A stretch of 64,000 nt of DNA from Candidatus Magasanikiibacteriota bacterium (GCA_003482855.1 DMXO01000005.1:99719-163718); one strand, 5' to 3'. Positions 8,916 to 57,003 are shown, counted from the first letter of the stretch. A program made the numbers and translations. The notes: generated from the sequence alone by a model not told the origin.

Positions 8916-9317
8916 TTGACTTCTCCTGATGTATGGTACGAGACGCTCGATAAACCAAGTTTTAATCCACCAAATTGGGTATTTGCACCAGTATGGACAG
9001 TATTGTTTGTATTGATAGGTGTTGCTCTGTATATAGTTTGGGATAGGAGCTTTTTGTTTTTTCGTAAAAAACTAAGGACAGCGCTCAATATATTTGCAAT
9101 ACAAATCATGCTTAATATCCTATGGTCATGGTTGTTTTTTTATTTTCGTAACCCTACTCTTGCGTTTGTCGAGATAGTCATGTTACTTGCTGTTATTATA
9201 TGGAATATGTTTGTTTTTTATCGCATAGATAGACGCGCAGGCTTTTTGATTTTACCTTACGCTGTGTGGGTTAGTTTTGCTATGGTTTTGAATGCCACCC
9301 TAGTTATTCTCAATTAA
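8916..9317 (+). CDS. tspO: TspO/MBR family tryptophan-rich sensory protein
   Basis: WYETLDKPSFNPPNWVFAPVWTVLFVLIGVALY, a Trp-rich, 5-TM pattern typical of TspO. Confidence 0.7.
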   Translation: MTSPDVWYETLDKPSFNPPNWVFAPVWTVLFVLIGVALYIVWDRSFLFFRKKLRTALNIFAIQIMLNILWSWLFFYFRNPTLAFVEIVMLLAVIIWNMFVFYRIDRRAGFLILPYAVWVSFAMVLNATLVILN

Positions 9318-9407
9318 TGTGGATAACTTTTATTTAAGGGAGCTAAAGCTTGACAATATCTAGCGAATGGTGTATTATCTACCTGCTATTATTTTAAGAA
9401 AAGACAT

Positions 9408-9575
9408 ATGGCTTCTAAGTCAAAAGAGCGTAAAAATCGCAAAAAAATGAAGTGTTCTGAATGTGGAACAATCACTTATTTTACCCGTAAAAATGTTACC
9501 TTGCAGAATCGTCTTGAACTCAACAAGCATTGCAAACATTGTGGTAAGCACACATTGCATAAAGAAACGAAATAA
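9408..9575 (+). CDS. rpmG: 50S ribosomal protein L33
   Basis: The 55-aa [58 protein letters not shown] has the L33 CxxC...CxxC zinc ribbon and the conserved C-terminal HKETK. The ORF track missed it because it is under 60 aa. Confidence 0.85.
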
Positions 9576-9633
9576 CGGTATACTAAAACAGTCTTTCAAA
9601 AAGGCTGTTTTTATAACCTCATTACTAATTTTT

Positions 9634-10458
9634 ATGTTTTATCTCCGTGCTATTTTTCGTAGCATATACGATGCCCGGTGGCTTACAGAACAAAAAGACA
9701 ACGGCAAGAAAGCTGCGAATTATATTGTTTTATTTATTTTGTTACTTTCAGCAATCTATGCGGGCTATCTTGCCACTACATTGCCACCACAGATGAGAAC
9801 TATCCGTGATACAGTTTTTGCCCAAGTTCCGTCATTCACGGCTGATATCCGTGATGGCATTTTGGAAGTAAGTAATTTGGAACAGCCATTTGAATATGCA
9901 GGCACATCAGATGGACAATCATTTCGTGTCGTGGTGGATACAGTTAATACAAGTACTATAGTGGTAGATGATACTTTATCAAACAAAGAAGAAAATATAT
10001 TATTAATTACCCGTGATCAATTGGTGGTGCGTGACGCAGCATCTGGTAAGACGACTCTTCAGGATTTTTCTGAGGTGCCAGATATGCACACAGATAGGGA
10101 GGAGATTGTGCGATGGACTGATGATTTTCTTGGTAAAGAGTCGTCTTTTTTTGTTTTTTTGCTTATAGCATGGTTTATACTTTTTACTTTTGGTAAAGTG
10201 GTTTATTTACTTATTCTTACAAGTCTGGTTTTTGTCATAGCCCGTCTTGCAAAAAAAGATAATTGGAAATTTGGGCAGATATACACTATGGGACTTTTTG
10301 CAATTACTGGTCCAAGCATTTTGGTGGGGATTATGCATCTGTATAGGCAGGATATCCCCTACGCATACACCATACTTACGCTTGGATTATTGTTGTATGT
10401 TGTATTTCGTGAGCAAAAACATAAAGAGATTTCGCCTGCAAAAGAAGAAGAAAAGTAA
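9634..10458 (+). CDS. hypothetical membrane protein (N-terminal TM, extracytoplasmic domain, C-terminal TM cluster)
   Basis: The track ORF 9463-10458 overlaps rpmG in another frame. The first in-frame ATG after the rpmG stop is at 9634 (MFYLRAIF...). Confidence 0.45.
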   Translation: MFYLRAIFRSIYDARWLTEQKDNGKKAANYIVLFILLLSAIYAGYLATTLPPQMRTIRDTVFAQVPSFTADIRDGILEVSNLEQPFEYAGTSDGQSFRVVVDTVNTSTIVVDDTLSNKEENILLITRDQLVVRDAASGKTTLQDFSEVPDMHTDREEIVRWTDDFLGKESSFFVFLLIAWFILFTFGKVVYLLILTSLVFVIARLAKKDNWKFGQIYTMGLFAITGPSILVGIMHLYRQDIPYAYTILTLGLLLYVVFREQKHKEISPAKEEEK

Positions 10459-10467
10459 TAAAAATAA

Positions 10468-10497
10468 AAACTACCCTCATGATGGGTAGTTTTTATT
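10468..10497 (+). terminator. rho-independent terminator
   Basis: AAACTACCC-tcatgat-GGGTAGTTT followed by TTTATTTT. Confidence 0.75.
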
Positions 10498-10511
10498 TTA
10501 TCTGCTGACTT

Positions 10512-10635
10512 GCAGGCGCGGTAGGAAATCTCACTCGGCACTTTGTGCCTCTTGGGGAAACCTTCTGGTTTCCCCAACCTTTCCTCAGCATATGAAACCT
10601 ATCGGTTTCACCCTTCCGCAGTTCGATTCCTCTCT
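10512..10635. repeat. tRNA-linked conserved structured element, copy B
   Basis: A 16-nt copy (gcaggcgcggtaggaa) of the tRNA-Trp 3' end, then atctcactc and a core homologous to copy A. Hairpin 1 carries compensatory changes (GGGGAAACC/GGTTTCCCC vs CGAAAACC/GGTTTTCG). It ends with GTTCGATTCCT, identical to the tRNA-Trp T-loop. Hairpin terminators bracket it on the plus strand. Confidence 0.6.
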
Positions 10636-10696
10636 ATTTGTTAATTTATCTGCTAACAACAAAATAACACCATGTTTGTGTAGTGTTATTTTATCG

Positions 10697-10767
10697 CAGG
10701 CGCGGTAGGAATCGAACCTACGCTAACGGTTTTGGAGACCGTAGTACTACCATTATACGACGCGCCC
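10697..10767 (-). tRNA. tRNA-Trp (CCA anticodon), no encoded 3' CCA
   Basis: Acceptor GGGCGCG/CGCGCCT, anticodon loop CTCCAAA, T-loop TTCGATT, 71 nt. Confidence 0.8.
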
Positions 10768-10876
10768 ATGATGCAGATAAATATACATTATTTTTTGAGG
10801 GAAATCAAGCCTGTCAATAGATTTGATATAAGGAGGTATCAATGCTACAATATAGCTACATCATAATCATTTTTTT

Positions 10877-12403
10877 ATGTACAAAAAATATATTGTCGCG
10901 TGTATTTTCTTATTATTTTTTATTGTTGCGCCAGGACATATCTTTGCACAAAATAGTGTGTCGACAGATACCCCAGTAGAAGATACTAGGGTGGTGGAGG
11001 CCTTTATATCGTCTGAAGATATTGTACAGGTTGGCAAAAAGATTATTTTTGGTGCTTCAAATTCTATTGTGCCCGAAGATAACACTATTGCCCCGTCATA
11101 TCGATGGGATTTTGGTGATGGTTTTTTTGAAGTTGGAGAAGAAGTCGTACACCAGTATGGTCACGTGGGCACATATGATGTTACTTTGTCACTTTCGTAT
11201 GACGGTACAGTGTACAAGGCTAGTAAGTCTGTTTTTGTCTATGATACACGCGCATTGCTTATCATAGATACGCAGAAACAAGACGATATCAATCTCATCA
11301 CACGACAAGCGCAAGAACAGGGTGTGGCTCTCAAGGTTTTGTCTCCCGAAGGGTTTGAAGGAGATTTCTTCAATGAGGATTCTTTGGTTAAGTTGATAGG
11401 TGAACAGGCCTCATATATCAAGGATTCTAGTTTACTTTTGTTTTATACCAAATCATTGCGTGGCTTGCAGGCTTTTACGAGCTATTGGCAAGGTCTTGAT
11501 GACGAGACAAAAGGACTTATCCAGAAAAAGTTTTTTGTTGTCATTACTGATGGCAATATAGACGTGGCGTCGCATGGGGTATTCCAGAGTTATCAAATTA
11601 TACTTCCTCCCTACATTTTGCTGACTCGACCAGAGGCGCTTAATCCAATTTTGGGGTTAAAAAATCTTGGAGATGTTGAGGCTGAACTTTTGGGGCGGGG
11701 TATAGAATTTATACATATTGATGAAAATAATGGGAAGTCTCCTTTTTATATATTATCCCAACTCATTACTTATTTTATTGAGAGAGGTATTTCACCCGAT
11801 AGCGTGTACCTCATTTTGGCTTTGCCTTTTCTTGCCTTTATCGTGATATTTTGTCGGCATGTTATTGGTATTAGTACATTTGGTGTGTATACGCCAGTGA
11901 TTATCACGGTGGCTTTTTATATGCTTGGTTTGTGGTTTGGTCTTTTTTCTTTTCTTTTTGCTGTTATCACGAGTTATGCGGTCAAATATATATTTGATAG
12001 ATTTGAATTATTATATTTGCCCAAAGTCGCACTCAATCTTTCGTTTATTGCTCTATCTTTTTTGTTGCTTATACTCCTCATGTTGTGGCTTGGTACCCCT
12101 GTGTCTCTGTCTGTGGCAGTATTTCCTATGCTTGTGATGTCTACATTATCTGAAAAATTTATGACAGCGAAGTCTGAGGAAGGTTTGCGTAATGCTATTC
12201 TTGGTGTTATCGAGACACTTGTTGTTGTTATAGGTTCATATTATCTTATGTTGTGGGCATCATTCAATAATCTTGTCATTTCATGGCCAGAAGTTGTTCT
12301 GTTGCCACTTGTGGGGATTTTGTTATTGGGGAAATTTAGTGGACTTCGGGTGAGTGAATATTTTAGATTTAGAAGTCTTTTTAGTGAGCATACTGAAGAA
12401 TAA
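10877..12403 (+). CDS. secreted PKD-domain protein with central alpha/beta domain and C-terminal ~7-TM bundle
   Basis: It has a signal peptide (FLLFFIVAPGHIFA) and a PKD motif (YRWDFGDG...HQYGHVGTYDVTL). About 6-7 hydrophobic helices occupy the last ~200 residues. It is immediately upstream of the ATP-grasp fusion. Confidence 0.6.
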   Translation: MYKKYIVACIFLLFFIVAPGHIFAQNSVSTDTPVEDTRVVEAFISSEDIVQVGKKIIFGASNSIVPEDNTIAPSYRWDFGDGFFEVGEEVVHQYGHVGTYDVTLSLSYDGTVYKASKSVFVYDTRALLIIDTQKQDDINLITRQAQEQGVALKVLSPEGFEGDFFNEDSLVKLIGEQASYIKDSSLLLFYTKSLRGLQAFTSYWQGLDDETKGLIQKKFFVVITDGNIDVASHGVFQSYQIILPPYILLTRPEALNPILGLKNLGDVEAELLGRGIEFIHIDENNGKSPFYILSQLITYFIERGISPDSVYLILALPFLAFIVIFCRHVIGISTFGVYTPVIITVAFYMLGLWFGLFSFLFAVITSYAVKYIFDRFELLYLPKVALNLSFIALSFLLLILLMLWLGTPVSLSVAVFPMLVMSTLSEKFMTAKSEEGLRNAILGVIETLVVVIGSYYLMLWASFNNLVISWPEVVLLPLVGILLLGKFSGLRVSEYFRFRSLFSEHTEE

Positions 12404-26695: not shown

Positions 26696-28147
26696 ATGTT
26701 TGACCATAAGGCGTTATTTAAGATGGTACGCAATGTCGCTTCGCAAGAAGGCGTTGATGTATATACAGTTGGGGGTTACGTGCGTGACCTCCTTCTTGGT
26801 GTACAAACTAAAAAGGATATAGATTTTGTAGTGGTTGGAAGTGGAATTACATTTGCAAAAAAATTTGATGAGATATGGCATACACAGGGGTCATTAGTTG
26901 AGTTTCCAGATTTTGACACAGCGCGTTTTGTGTTTACCAAAGAATTAGAAGACGACACTAAGGAAAAATTATTTGAAATTGAGTTTGCAGGTGCGCGGAG
27001 TGAAACATATGATATAAAATCACGCAAGCCTAAAGTGACAGCAACAAATTTGGAAGATGATTTGAAACGTCGCGATTTTACAGTCAATGCGATGGCGCGC
27101 AGAGTTATTGCAACTGGTCTCAGTAAAAAAATTATAGATCCGTTTCATGGGCAAGACGATGTACAAAATAAGATACTTCGCACTCCACTTGATCCAGACA
27201 TTACATTTAGTGACGATCCATTGCGCATGTTACGTGCAGCCCGTTTTGCATCACAGCTTGGTTTTGCTATAGAAAAAGAGACCTTGTCTGCAATTGAACG
27301 TAATAAGCATCGACTTAAAATTATTTCTGCCGAACGCATTCAAGAAGAATTTTTCAAACTTCTTTCTACTCCTAGACCATCGATTGGATTGTGGATTTTG
27401 TATGAAACGGGGTTACTCCAGGAATTTTTACCAGAAGTATGCGATTTATGGGGAGTGGAAGAATTATATGGGCAAGGTCACAAAAATAATCTTACACACA
27501 CATTTAAGGTCGTAGATAATTTAGCTGAACGCTCTGACAAAGTATTGCTACGTTTTGCTGCATTGATGCACGATATTGGCAAATCGGGTACCAAAAAATT
27601 TATACGTGGCCGAGGTTGGACGTTTGATATGCATGAACATCTGGGGAGAAAAATCGTCCGCCAAGTGAGTAAACGTCTGCACATGAGCAAAGACGACACT
27701 GAGTATGTGGCAAAGTTGGTACGTTGGCATCAACAACCTATTGCGCTTATGGATGAAGGAGTTACCGATAGCCCAGTGCGTCGTCTGATTGTAAATTTGG
27801 AAGATGATTTGGATGATTTGTTACAATTATGTCGCAGTGATATCACGACAGGTAATCCCCAAAAGCTAGGACGGCGTCTTAAAAATTATGATTATTTGGA
27901 AAAACGCATTGCAGAAGTCATAGAAAAGGACAAGCTTCGCGCATTTCAGTCTCCTGTTCGTGGTGAAGAAATTATGAAAGAATGTGGTTTGAAACCTGGC
28001 CCCACAGTTGGTAAAATAAAAAAAGCACTTGAAGATGCAATTTTGGATGGGGTAGTTCCTAATGAATATGAGGCTACAAAGGAGTATTTTTTGAAAATTA
28101 AAGATGATTTTTTGAAAGACACACAGGAGTGGGAGAGACTGAGTTAA
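26696..28147 (+). CDS. cca: CCA-adding tRNA nucleotidyltransferase with HD domain
   Basis: It has VYTVGGYVRDLLLG...DIDFVV (the pol-beta-like GxxRD motif), RLRFAALMHDIGK (HD), and the head-neck-tail architecture. Confidence 0.85.
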   Translation: MFDHKALFKMVRNVASQEGVDVYTVGGYVRDLLLGVQTKKDIDFVVVGSGITFAKKFDEIWHTQGSLVEFPDFDTARFVFTKELEDDTKEKLFEIEFAGARSETYDIKSRKPKVTATNLEDDLKRRDFTVNAMARRVIATGLSKKIIDPFHGQDDVQNKILRTPLDPDITFSDDPLRMLRAARFASQLGFAIEKETLSAIERNKHRLKIISAERIQEEFFKLLSTPRPSIGLWILYETGLLQEFLPEVCDLWGVEELYGQGHKNNLTHTFKVVDNLAERSDKVLLRFAALMHDIGKSGTKKFIRGRGWTFDMHEHLGRKIVRQVSKRLHMSKDDTEYVAKLVRWHQQPIALMDEGVTDSPVRRLIVNLEDDLDDLLQLCRSDITTGNPQKLGRRLKNYDYLEKRIAEVIEKDKLRAFQSPVRGEEIMKECGLKPGPTVGKIKKALEDAILDGVVPNEYEATKEYFLKIKDDFLKDTQEWERLS

Positions 28148-54366: not shown

Positions 54367-57003
54367 ATGCAAGAAAAAATTATAATTCGTGGAGCTCGAG
54401 AACATAATTTGAAAAACATCAGTCTCGAACTTCCACGCAACAACATGATTGTTTTTACTGGACTGTCTGGATCAGGCAAGTCTAGTCTTGCGTTTGATAC
54501 CATTTTTGCAGAAGGCCAGCGTAGATATATAGAAAGTCTATCTGCATATGCACGTCAATTTCTTGGAGGCATGCAGAAACCTGACGTGGATGAGATAGAG
54601 GGACTGAGCCCAGCCATCTCTATAGACCAAAAGGCGCATAGTTCAAATCCACGTTCTACTGTTGCTACTATTACTGAGGTATATGATTATTTACGTGTAT
54701 TGTATGCGAGAGTCGGAGAACCACATTGTCCTGTTTGTGGAACAAAAATAGAGAAGATGACAGTTGACCAAATTGAAGAAAGAATAATAGAGAATCTGCT
54801 CGGAAGTAAAAAGTTGAAAATAGAAAGTAAAAAGGGTAATGAAATTATCATTTTGAGCCCAGTGGTGAGAGGTAGAAAAGGCGAATATTACCAGATGTTG
54901 TATGATATGTATAATTCTGGATTTTTGAATGTACGCGTGGATGGAAAGATGAAGTCGTTGAAAGAAAGAATTGTACTATCAAAGAATAATAAGCATACGA
55001 TTGAGATTGTTGTGGATAAAATGGAGTTCAGAGTTCTGAGTTCTGAGTTCAGAGACGAAGACAAACAGCGTTTAGCTGAAGCCGTAGAACGCGCAGTAGA
55101 TTTATCAAATGGATTATGCACTGTTATATATCCTGATAAGGAAGAACATATCTACAGTACACAGTATTCGTGTCCCAAAGATGGTTTTAGCTTTCCAGAG
55201 ATTGAGCCAAGGCTTTTTAGTTTCAATAGTCCTTATGGGTATTGCGATTTTTGCACGGGACTTGGTACCAAAGAATTATTTAGTGAAGAAGTATGTCCCA
55301 AATGTGAAGGCAGACGTCTCAATAATAATGCTCTTTCGGTCAAAATTGCTGACAAAAATATTTGGGAAGCAACGAGTCAGACAATTGGGGAGGCAAAATC
55401 TTTTTTTGAAAATCTAATAGAAATATTGGATAAGAAAAAAATGGAAATAGCAGGGACAGCCCTAAATGAGATACACAATAGATTATCATTTTTACATAAT
55501 GTCGGTCTTCACTATATTACACTCAATCGGAGAGCAGGCACTTTGTCCGGCGGAGAGGCCCAGCGCATTCGTCTCGCATCTCAAGTTGGCCAACAGCTTG
55601 TGGGAGCATTATATGTATTGGATGAACCAACTATTGGATTGCACCAAAAAGACAACGATCAACTTGTCTCCACACTTCGTAATTTATGTGATATAGGAAA
55701 TACTATCATTGTCGTGGAACATGACGAAGATACTATTTTGACTAGTGATTGGGTGGTAGATATTGGGCCAGGAGCAGGAACACATGGTGGGAAGGTGATT
55801 TATTCTGGACCGCTCAACTTGCTACTTGAAAGTAAAAAGGAAAAAGTAAAAAATAAAAAGAATGATTCAATTTTAGGCTGCACCATCTTGGGTAATCCAG
55901 AAAATTCATTAACAGGTAAATATTTACGGGGTGAAGAAAAGATTGAAGTACCTGACACGCGTCGCAAAGTTGATGCTTCAACACCAAAAATTAAAATTAA
56001 AGGCGCGAGTGAACATAACTTAAAGACTATTGACGTCGAGATTCCATTGCGTCGTTTTGTTTGTTTGACGGGGGTGTCTGGGTCTGGCAAGTCTACACTC
56101 ATGCACGATATTTTGTATCGTGCGGTTGCAAATAGAATAAATTATTCTGGCCATGTGCCAGAAGAACAAAAAAGACGTGTTGGTAAACACAAACAAATTT
56201 TGAACACGGAATATATAGACAAGATCATAAAGATAGATCAAAATCCGATTGGCCGTACACCACGAAGTAATCCTGCTACGTATACAGGAACATGGACTCT
56301 CATCCGCGATTTGTTTGCGGCGACTCCCGAAGCGCGTATTCGTGGATACAAATCTGGCCGCTTTAGTTTCAACAGGCCTGGTGGGCGGTGTGAGAATTGT
56401 GAAGGACGCGGGGTATTGGAGATCGAAATGCATTTTTTGCCAAGTGTAGAGATAGTATGTGATGTGTGCAAAGGCCAGCGATTTACCCAAGAGACATTAC
56501 AAGTGCATTACAAAAGCAAAAACATTGTAGATGTACTCAATATGACGATAGAAGAAGCGGAAGATTTTTTTGAAGATATTCCATACATCTATGACAAATT
56601 GAAAGTGTTGAACAGTGTAGGACTAGATTATCTGCGCCTCGGACAATCTGCTACAACACTCTCTGGAGGTGAAGCACAGAGGATTAAACTTTCAAAGGAA
56701 CTCGCAAAGAAGAATACGAGCAAGACATTGTATTTACTTGATGAACCTACGACAGGACTTCATTATGATGATGTGAAAAAGTTGATCAGTGTGTTGCAGG
56801 ATCTTGTGTCAAAAGGGAATACTATTTTGGTTATTGAGCATAATTTGGATGTAATTAAGTCGTGCGATTGGATCATAGATCTTGGCCCTGAAGGTGGAGA
56901 CAAAGGTGGCGAAGTAGTGGCGATCGGCACACCCGAGGATATTGCACGGAAAATTACTACCAGCTATACTGGGAAATATCTAGGTCGTGTATTAAAAAAA
57001 TAA
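54367..57003 (+). CDS. uvrA: excinuclease ABC subunit A
   Basis: Two ABC modules (GLSGSGKSSLAFDT, LSGGEAQRIRLA twice) and zinc fingers. It contains three in-frame heptamer-repeat insertions at about 54805, 55024 and 55831. Confidence 0.95.
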   Translation: MQEKIIIRGAREHNLKNISLELPRNNMIVFTGLSGSGKSSLAFDTIFAEGQRRYIESLSAYARQFLGGMQKPDVDEIEGLSPAISIDQKAHSSNPRSTVATITEVYDYLRVLYARVGEPHCPVCGTKIEKMTVDQIEERIIENLLGSKKLKIESKKGNEIIILSPVVRGRKGEYYQMLYDMYNSGFLNVRVDGKMKSLKERIVLSKNNKHTIEIVVDKMEFRVLSSEFRDEDKQRLAEAVERAVDLSNGLCTVIYPDKEEHIYSTQYSCPKDGFSFPEIEPRLFSFNSPYGYCDFCTGLGTKELFSEEVCPKCEGRRLNNNALSVKIADKNIWEATSQTIGEAKSFFENLIEILDKKKMEIAGTALNEIHNRLSFLHNVGLHYITLNRRAGTLSGGEAQRIRLASQVGQQLVGALYVLDEPTIGLHQKDNDQLVSTLRNLCDIGNTIIVVEHDEDTILTSDWVVDIGPGAGTHGGKVIYSGPLNLLLESKKEKVKNKKNDSILGCTILGNPENSLTGKYLRGEEKIEVPDTRRKVDASTPKIKIKGASEHNLKTIDVEIPLRRFVCLTGVSGSGKSTLMHDILYRAVANRINYSGHVPEEQKRRVGKHKQILNTEYIDKIIKIDQNPIGRTPRSNPATYTGTWTLIRDLFAATPEARIRGYKSGRFSFNRPGGRCENCEGRGVLEIEMHFLPSVEIVCDVCKGQRFTQETLQVHYKSKNIVDVLNMTIEEAEDFFEDIPYIYDKLKVLNSVGLDYLRLGQSATTLSGGEAQRIKLSKELAKKNTSKTLYLLDEPTTGLHYDDVKKLISVLQDLVSKGNTILVIEHNLDVIKSCDWIIDLGPEGGDKGGEVVAIGTPEDIARKITTSYTGKYLGRVLKK

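Follow-up and report, generated by a model that had tools for sequence, protein, structure and literature searches.

Elements that lie at the 3' end of tRNA genes and are flanked by partial tRNAs are well known, tycheposons being one example (10.1101/2020.12.28.424599). Here we describe a non-coding element of about 165-185 bp that occurs twice in a 64,000-nucleotide stretch of DNA (the window) from a Candidatus Magasanikiibacteriota bacterium (GCA_003482855.1 DMXO01000005.1:99719-163718), as copy A next to tRNA-Asp(GTC) and as copy B next to tRNA-Trp(CCA), and that recurs at many other tRNA genes. With the islands found at tRNA 3' ends, namely, P4-type islands, Prochlorococcus tycheposons, integrative and conjugative or mobilizable elements, and their cis-mobilizable derivatives, it shares an intact tRNA gene, a direct repeat from the T-loop to the tRNA end and sometimes beyond, tandem accretion arrays with partial tRNAs, and empty sites in relatives. 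It differs from them in being only about 170 bp long with neither an integrase nor any other open reading frame (ORF), in having a core of covarying hairpins, in carrying an inverted copy of the target that is predicted to pair with the repeat, and in having one core family that serves at least 16 tRNA identities.

Three other kinds of described systems come close. The attP(+) site of phage CTX and of other elements that exploit Xer recombination, and the attC sites of integrons, also have inverted target-like copies about 90 nt apart, a stem that mimics the duplex target, conserved mismatches with an extrahelical base, and arrays that arise by repeated integration, and they too can be non-coding or satellite-like. 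The present element differs in that its target is a tRNA gene and not dif or attI, and no dependence on Xer or IntI is claimed; its AAC/GTT-like boxes lie beside the loop and not at the base of the stem as in attC, and its loop is a conserved core of three hairpins. We rejected identity with integron attC on the order of the boxes. The element has no dif-like XerC/XerD arms either, the sequence being that of a tRNA T-arm. The omega-RNA of TnpB in IS200/IS605 elements and the homing guide of type V-K CRISPR-associated transposons (CAST) likewise consist of a scaffold followed by a 3' segment of about 16-20 nt identical to a neighboring target, use tRNA genes as safe-harbor targets and have non-coding derivatives, whereas the element has no tnpB or cas gene and no match to an Rfam omega-RNA, has a 5' antisense segment and leaves an intact target in the same locus. 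Miniature inverted-repeat transposable elements (MITEs) and repetitive extragenic palindromes with their mosaic assemblies (REP/BIME) are similarly short, non-coding, multi-copy, hairpin-forming and intergenic, often beside terminators; in the element, however, the inverted repeats are derived from the target and differ with each tRNA, the duplication is 14-55 nt and not of fixed length, and the linkage to tRNA genes and the orientation are strict. Membership of the MITEs was rejected for want of element-specific terminal inverted repeats and of a target-site duplication of fixed length. Thus the general kind is known, and what has no described counterpart that we found in Rfam or the searchable literature is the protein-free size of about 170 bp, the covarying fold, the inverted target copy that closes it, and the single core spread over at least 16 tRNA identities; no description of such tRNA-linked elements was found in that literature. 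We tentatively favor the reading that it is a miniature, non-autonomous element that integrates at the 3' ends of tRNA genes and whose fold is its attachment site.

The features of the two copies are as follows.

10696-10767, minus strand: tRNA-Trp(CCA) gene, the target or anchor of copy B (ARAGORN; Rfam tRNA model, 64.6 bits).
10696-10711, minus strand: T_a, the proximal copy of the direct repeat, which is the last 16 nt of tRNA-Trp (repeat search, 16/16).
10632-10695, minus strand: X, a trailer with a terminator-like hairpin whose arms are 10661-10670 and 10683-10692 (sequence and trailer alignment).
10621-10631, minus strand: antiT, AGGAATCGAAC on this strand, the 5' strand of the predicted closing helix P1 (sequence; duplex prediction).
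10528-10620, minus strand: the conserved core, purine-rich and about 90 nt (match to covariance model R1 at 10529-10618, 102.8 bits; pair counts; RNAfold z = -5.3).
10512-10527, minus strand: T_c, the distal direct copy of the tRNA-Trp 3' end, TTCCTACCGCGCCTGC (16/16 repeat).
10461-10499, minus strand: strong bidirectional terminator 3' of copy B, common to the convergent DUF1189 gene (terminator scan, 16-pair stem).
5345-5419, minus strand: tRNA-Asp(GTC) gene, the anchor of copy A (ARAGORN; Rfam).
5176-5344, minus strand: copy A, made up of X (5295-5344), antiT GACTCGAA (5287-5294), core (5193-5286) and T_c (5176-5192).

In the sense of the tRNA, which is the minus strand of the window, the element of copy B occupies 10512-10695, and in each copy the order along this sense is tRNA, X, antiT, core, T_c and terminator. 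The sequence GCAGGCGCGGTAGGAA is present at both 10512-10527 and 10696-10711 with 16/16 identity and, when read on the minus strand, is the 3' end of tRNA-Trp, as a preliminary description of this locus had claimed. The CCA is not encoded in the tRNA-Trp gene, and T_a spans T-loop positions 59-60, the 3' strands of the T-stem and the acceptor stem, and the discriminator plus one nucleotide. The repeat runs further than had been described: beyond a 9-nt indel about 45 nt more, extending through the terminator, are about 75% identical, and alignment of the proximal with the distal trailer identifies X of copy B as a diverged duplicate of the trailer and terminator that lie 3' of T_c. Similarly, GTTCGATTCCT at 10621-10631 does match the T-loop region 11/11 as had been reported, but its orientation had been misread, because antiT of copy B is the exact reverse complement of tRNA-Trp positions 53-63 and is therefore an inverted copy complementary to the tRNA and not a second T-loop. 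What had been missed is that this inverted match pairs with the repeated tRNA end and closes the structure, T_c being the 3' strand of P1 plus a single-stranded tail. Between them the core of copy B has, in order, GGAAGGG, hairpin 2 (HP2, 10592-10611), CTGAGGAAAG, hairpin 1 (HP1, 10552-10577), AGAGG, hairpin 3 (HP3, 10537-10549) and CGAGTGAGAT.

The homology of the two cores, also proposed from the first reading of the sequence, is borne out by 77% ungapped identity between 5189-5294 and 10524-10629 (repeat search) and by an identical block of 25 nt and a degenerate block of 31 nt, each of which occurs exactly twice in the window where none is expected (100 shuffles). The core of copy A matches R1 at 5194-5283 with 100.9 bits, and its T_c is 17/17 identical to 5344-5360. 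Hairpin 1 of copy A is CGCGAAAACC/GGTTTTCGTG and that of copy B TGGGGAAACC/GGTTTCCCCA, so that it differs on both strands and is still paired in both copies; hairpin 2 and the CCCTTCC stretch do not differ between the copies. R1 found only these two copies in the window, and tRNA-Thr (6429-6502) and tRNA-Val (8562-8638) have plain terminators and no such element, in agreement with the earlier statement. The distinction from an ordinary tRNA trailer holds as well and extends to dozens of copies.

To find these, a pattern of 19 specified bases taken from hairpin 2 was run over bacterial contigs representing one genome per species. It matched at 45 places, about 36 of which continue into the rest of the core. 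R1, a covariance model built from 22 copies, gave 36 strong copies (67-108 bits) from about 18 assemblies of Patescibacteria, and at lower scores it also found truncated copies and a GC-richer sister family, 'B'. All 36 are of the Patescibacteria type: the hosts are Magasanikbacteria, Uhrbacteria, Parcubacteria and one labelled Saccharibacteria, along with several metagenome-assembled genomes (MAGs) of about 0.9 Mb labelled 'uncultured Gammaproteobacteria'. A scan of metagenome contigs added further copies, and the 19-base pattern had no match in viral contigs. Nine loci matched by the pattern (L007, L008, L011, L015, L027, L028, L032, L036 and L039, from Pirellulales, Arthrobacter, Myxococcales and others) were set aside as chance or unrelated hairpins that share with the element only GTGAAACC-NNNN-GGTTTCAC. 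Each tRNA that was detected has its end 60-80 nt upstream of the core and is encoded in the same orientation, and where the gap between tRNA and core is larger it is filled by another element. The tRNA identities are Gln, Arg, Lys, Gly, Glu, Ser, Thr, Leu, Cys, Asp, Ile, Phe, Trp, His and Val, and a diverged R1 match in L045 lies just downstream of tRNA-Pro, which brings the total to at least 16. An assembly artefact or a chance local duplication could be thought of, since L002 breaks into Ns right after the repeat and repeats can trouble assemblers. This is extremely improbable: the element recurs in the roughly 18 independent assemblies, in a closed chromosome of 1.08 Mb (OY970357.1) and in independent contigs of the window locus, and no chance match is expected for the shared blocks. 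The assembly duplication that the preliminary description had named as its own refutation is thereby excluded.

The sister family 'B' has its hairpins arranged differently and shares with the element (family A) the GGGAAGGG start, an end in AGTGAGAT, and the logic of antiT and T_c; hairpin modules such as CCCCGCCCTTCGCGAAGGGCGGGG are common to both families. Its loci are L012 (oriented) at about 330-510, L029 at 6465-6663 and 5537-5704, L004 at 852-963, L045 at 612-711 and L009 at 139-288.

The consensus core is GGGAAGGG, then HP2 as GTGAAACC-GNNA-GGTTTCAC, then CTGAGGAAAG, HP1, AGAGG, HP3 and CGA-GTGA. HP1 has 10 bp and a CGAA loop, and HP3 has 5 bp, is usually GGAGC-GAA-GCGAC with tandem G.A, and varies in length. 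Over the 22 copies, HP1 is 95.9% paired with compensatory double changes at 6 of its 10 pairs, and HP3 has them at 4 of 5; overall, 10 of 23 pairs show double changes. The whole structure is 91.4% paired, a figure that falls to 23-48% on sliding the partners by 1-3 columns, and the covariation score is 0.322 versus 0.121 in shuffles, none of 500 of which reached the observed score. Thus the compensatory change first seen in hairpin 1 of the two window copies holds over 22-36 copies, while for hairpin 2, for which covariation had also been anticipated, nothing can be read either way because the search pattern itself fixed this hairpin and it is invariant. Since there are six G.T or T.G pairs and no A.C pair on the tRNA-sense strand, this strand is the one that folds. 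AntiT and T_c are predicted to pair into the closing helix P1 with a 2x2 G.A/A.G internal mismatch and a 1-nt bulge that recur across copies; L004, L017 and L045 contain P1 in their minimum-free-energy folds, and in copies A and B of the window it is weaker. As modelled, the element is a four-helix fold whose closing stem is a base-for-base duplex of the part of the neighboring tRNA gene from the T-loop to the acceptor and whose 3' tail, identical to the acceptor 3' strand, stays single-stranded.

Such a fold raises the question whether the element works as RNA. It could be a structured non-coding RNA derived from the tRNA transcript by read-through of the terminator, i.e., a 3'-external-transcribed-spacer RNA, that acts as a guide or as a mimic of the tRNA acceptor/T-arm. 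Its constant scaffold would bear, on the 5' side, a stretch complementary to the T-loop and, on the 3' side, 16-20 nt identical to the end of the tRNA. As a guide it would have a 5' scaffold and a 3' guide in the manner of a TnpB omega-RNA or a Cas12 CRISPR RNA, with the universal GTTC of the T-loop at the place of a target-adjacent motif, and it would serve an RNA-guided nuclease, recombinase or repressor that acts on the tRNA gene. The covarying hairpins with G.U-compatible pairs on the tRNA-sense strand only, the predominance of GNRA-type loops in hairpin 2, the terminators 3' of T_c and the guide-like length and position of T_c all agree with this, as does the antiT variant TCGGAC of L002, which pairs with the T-loop only through a G.U pair. 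On the other hand, no sigma-70-like promoter is predicted for the element, which has terminators on both sides, and the terminator hairpin between it and the tRNA also counts against a separately transcribed RNA. A scan of 4900-11100 with all Rfam families at E up to 10 gave only four tRNAs and sub-threshold chance matches, with no hammerhead despite a CUGAGGA motif and no match to an omega-RNA-type or ribozyme model. Moreover, a guide identical to the intact tRNA gene upstream would be directed at the very locus that encodes it, genes for TnpB, IscB, Cas or IS110 are found neither in the window nor recurrently nearby, and several copies have a decayed T_c or a truncated core. We regard an RNA function as less likely than the integrative element, though as a serious alternative to it. 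The idea that the element codes for a peptide was dropped, the longest sense ORF being 7 codons.

The flanks of the core are tied to the local tRNA. In all copies antiT, counted outward from position 52/53, is the reverse complement of the local tRNA, even where the T-loop is unusual as with GTCCGA in L019; it is 8-13 nt long in most copies, is 16-18 nt in L004 and L017, extends into the acceptor strand in L045, and is separated from the core by 2-4 variable nucleotides. T_c begins at T-loop position 57-59, with GTGA of the core in the place of G53-T54-T55-C56, directly abuts the conserved core end CGAGTGAGA, and in most copies matches the 3' end of the local tRNA over 14-19 nt. The tRNA stays intact, and the direct repeat is 14-55 nt in most of the 35 copies examined. 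It continues without a mismatch through trailer and terminator in L002 (55 nt), L017 (49 nt), L043 (45 nt) and L018 (37 nt), is diverged past the tRNA end in L004, L029, L030, L041 and copy B of the window, and elsewhere does not go past the tRNA end. The adjoining trailers have diverged to about 60-75% identity beside a T_c that is still perfect, a pattern that also suits the RNA explanation. In the tRNA-Gln subfamilies, the TTCGAAT of the T-loop is intact in the distal copy, and T-loop and T-stem strand are separated by a small inserted hairpin, either AGCGAAGCG or a longer GGTCGC...GCGACC, so that the repeat is exact over the last 14 nt only; a T_c interrupted in this way is seen in the tRNA-Gln copies L001, L013, L042 and L006 and in L003, L009 and L038. 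Because the block of identity at tRNA-Gln is the last 14 nt, we place the recombination in the acceptor-side segment. An IS91-like rolling-circle insertion after the GTTC of the T-loop is not favored, as T_c at tRNA-Gln holds a 9-nt hairpin and is identical over the last 14 nt only.

A repeat that starts at T-loop position 57-59 and is 16-19 nt long has the span of a retroviral primer-binding site, and this brings up a retroelement-type relic in which the complement of the tRNA 3' end on the plus strand was such a site, or in which a read-through pre-tRNA was reverse transcribed with snap-back priming at the terminator. The inverted copy is indeed symmetric around the terminator hairpin (78% of 41 positions pair in copy A), and the 2-4 variable nucleotides between antiT and core would be in keeping with it. 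However, the distal copy follows the genomic trailer and not a mature CCA, copy A having ...GCA-C and not ...GCCA, no reverse transcriptase is encoded in the window or near the copies, and the strand-specific G.T pairs put the folded strand in the sense of the tRNA and not of a primer-binding site. We consider this origin very unlikely, and membership among primer-binding sites was rejected because the repeat follows the genomic sequence or trailer with no added CCA.

In its genomic behavior the family resembles a mobile element, with arrays, decay, empty sites and repeats that run into the terminator, and this too had escaped the preliminary description. L016 holds two tandem 164-nt units, and in L004, L001, L012, L029 and L009 two elements of different families stand in series, each ending in its own copy of the tRNA end. 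L005 and L022 are truncated, and L040, L003, L014 and L041 have a damaged T_c or core. In one MAG, tRNA-Gln(CTG) and tRNA-Gln(TTG) carry X-antiT-core units that are 95-98% identical, with tRNA bodies that are 89% identical and distal flanks that are unrelated, and cores 93-95% identical are found at Leu, Phe, Ser and Asp tRNA genes. Three orthologues of tRNA-Thr(GGT) have conserved the core, antiT and T_c, including an extra C in T_c of all three, and have swapped X and the distal trailer mosaically; core, antiT and T_c are far better conserved among orthologues than are the neighboring spacers. That these parts are kept while the spacers are replaced is also what an RNA function would lead one to expect.

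Sites that are occupied in some genomes are empty in others. The tRNA-Thr(GGT) gene of the window is empty where L025, L033 and L035 are occupied, and the tRNA-Gly/Met cluster of L086 is empty where L018 and L040 are occupied. In L046-L052, tRNA-Trp is empty between the same DUF1189 and 7TM-transglutaminase neighbors in the opposite orientation, with about 40-50% protein identity to the window genome. The relatives available are all distant, so that the exact boundaries of insertion cannot be read from them. Four contigs encode an identical DUF1189 protein. In three of them, all further metagenome contigs (L053-L055), the intergenic gap that tRNA-Trp and the element occupy in the window is again 418 nt, and the fourth (L056) ends 110 nt past the gene. 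Hence none of L053-L055 gives a near-isogenic empty site for the window locus, and the ORF flanking copy A is not on record. As for the orientation, the DUF1189 and 7TM-transglutaminase genes flank tRNA-Trp in the window (10460-10880) as they do in relatives, with tRNA-Trp inverted in the window (compare L046 at 3829-4151, L052 at 3325-3701, and L049/L050 around 4236-4307); tRNA-Val and tRNA-Thr of the window are also inverted and are split by an insert of ArsR, thioredoxin and permease genes, the order in relatives being Val-Thr-DUF1189.

Larger islands use the same sites. L073 compared with L010 and L077 is an insertion polymorphism: in L073 an intact tRNA-Asp is followed by the element, and in L010 and L077 that point is the right end of an island of more than 9 kb (type 'Z'). 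The island in L077 carries an HTH_3/IrrE-like pair, a type III restriction-modification methylase, a NucS-like protein and a 377-aa ORF with a weak Pfam match (27.6 bits) to Phage_CRI, a rolling-circle replication initiator (Rep), which PHROGs did not confirm. Inserts of type Z end in AAAAGTTCGGAAG followed by a degenerate copy of the 3' half of the local tRNA, and have no more than their last 6 nt or so in common with the tRNA; these ends are at 2870-2910 in L010, about 9100-9140 in L077, about 1815-1850 in L024 and 7744-7775 in L042 (oriented). L006, L010, L024 and L042, which have no tRNA directly upstream, were considered as autonomous copies and rejected, since a Z island lies between the tRNA and the element instead.

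It could be argued from such islands that the copies are inert scars, i.e., attL, attR and arm sequences left in tRNA genes by integrase-type islands or prophages after internal deletion, much like cis-mobilizable elements, in which case the fold would be irrelevant. Direct repeats of the tRNA 3' end around inserted DNA are the classic signature of an island, and successive integrations push older elements outward and so give arrays with partial tRNAs (10.1101/2020.12.28.424599); in addition, a complete attP site has about the length of the element. Yet 36 copies at more than 15 different tRNAs would not have come to share their boundaries through independent deletions, and no copy contains an integrase remnant. 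Compensatory changes in two hairpins together with strand-asymmetric G.T pairs are not expected of double-stranded arms that bind protein, and the core is conserved far above the flanking non-coding DNA. Scars are thus an unlikely explanation.

A search for proteins that might move the element gave negative results. No ORF fits into about 170 bp. In the window, Pfam assigned only housekeeping functions to 30 ORFs (all those of at least 300 aa except 54367-57003, together with the ORFs flanking both copies), with no recombinase, integrase, Rep, reverse transcriptase, TnpB, IscB, Cas or IS110 among them, and all-versus-all clustering of the ORFs around the 36 loci gave only syntenic housekeeping families and no recurring mobile-element protein.

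The reading that we tentatively favor, a miniature integrative element, builds on what is observed, namely, the architecture, the tRNA specificity, the covarying fold and the population behavior, and adds a circular intermediate, a single-stranded DNA form and a recombinase, all of which we infer. The mobile unit would be a circle of the tRNA 3' segment T, X, antiT and the core. Campbell-type recombination between this circle and the identical T of a tRNA gene would give an intact tRNA (with T_a), X, antiT, the core and a second T (T_c), which is the order observed. In a single-stranded form, most likely of DNA and possibly of RNA, pairing of antiT with T_c would rebuild the duplex target from T-loop to acceptor, and P1 with its 2x2 G.A mismatch and 1-nt bulge would enclose the three conserved hairpins. 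A single-stranded circle would then offer T as one arm of a hairpin and antiT as the other, and the product expected of it has just the arrangement observed: target, cargo, inverted copy, loop and target. Phage CTX integrates by way of such a folded single strand and integron cassettes do so similarly, and HP3, usually GCGAAGC, is a C-GNA-G mini-hairpin of a kind that is unusually stable in DNA. Since the element encodes no protein, it would be mobilized in trans by a recombinase encoded elsewhere. An integrative element would account for the intact tRNA, the direct repeat of variable length, the arrays, the swapping of trailers and the decayed copies, as well as for the strand-specific covarying fold, the conserved P1 mismatches, the absence of a promoter and the terminator that precedes the element.

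Several points weigh against this reading. No recombinase, Rep, reverse transcriptase or TnpB is encoded in the window or recurs beside the copies, and no autonomous relative was found. It leaves unexplained how T and antiT come to match a new tRNA when cores at different tRNAs are 93-95% identical; retargeting would need either gene conversion of the core only, through the conserved blocks of 24-27 nt at its ends, or templated copying of the flanks. The conservation of core, antiT and T_c among orthologues and the perfect T_c beside drifting trailers could equally fit an RNA selected by the host, to which the mostly GNRA-type loops of hairpin 2 and the terminator after T_c are also suited. 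Lastly, the excised circle and its single-stranded DNA form are steps that we infer, and the sole link to rolling-circle replication or single-stranded DNA is the weak Phage_CRI match in one neighboring island.

If the element is mobile, a much smaller site-specific integrative element can hardly be imagined, since it is little more than a folded attachment site, and it has spread to most tRNA species in genomes of about 1 Mb. It would then illustrate the role of tRNA genes as universal landing pads and the way in which a copy of each target may be carried or acquired by an element. If it is a guide, whether of RNA or of single-stranded DNA, it would represent a new kind of programmable DNA addressing with a built-in rule for retargeting. 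More speculatively, though with a substantial minority chance, the fold may be the working part of an undescribed targeting system. In it, an enzyme acting in trans would use a hairpin of single-stranded DNA or RNA, with sense and antisense copies of the T-loop-to-acceptor segment, to recognize the T-arm common to tRNA genes and to insert the protein-free element, or a larger cargo, at whichever tRNA gene is chosen; the segments that confer specificity would be copied from the target and not evolved. Were this true, it would be a programmable tRNA-directed insertion distinct from integrases, Tn7/CAST, IS110 bridge RNAs and IS200/IS605. On either the integrative or the guide reading, the element is a feature for the annotation of Patescibacteria, explains partial-tRNA repeats, and comes with a covariance model that can be tested.

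Two other observations were made in the window. A gene for a CCA-adding enzyme (PolyA_pol head and HD domain), one of the 30 ORFs scanned, is present at 26696-28147, which fits the tRNA genes of the window that lack CCA; their 3' maturation would accordingly proceed by endonucleolytic cleavage at the discriminator and addition of CCA. In addition, a near-perfect long hairpin of 91 nt at 6172-6262 on the minus strand has a minimum free energy of -53.5 kcal/mol (z = -9.6) and no Rfam match, and its pyrimidine apical loop CCCCCUCCUUC resembles the anti-Shine-Dalgarno end of 16S rRNA. Possibly it is a small RNA or leader that annotation has missed, and a homologue is found in a distant MAG (L073, about 678-775) upstream of a small basic ORF and tRNA-Asp.

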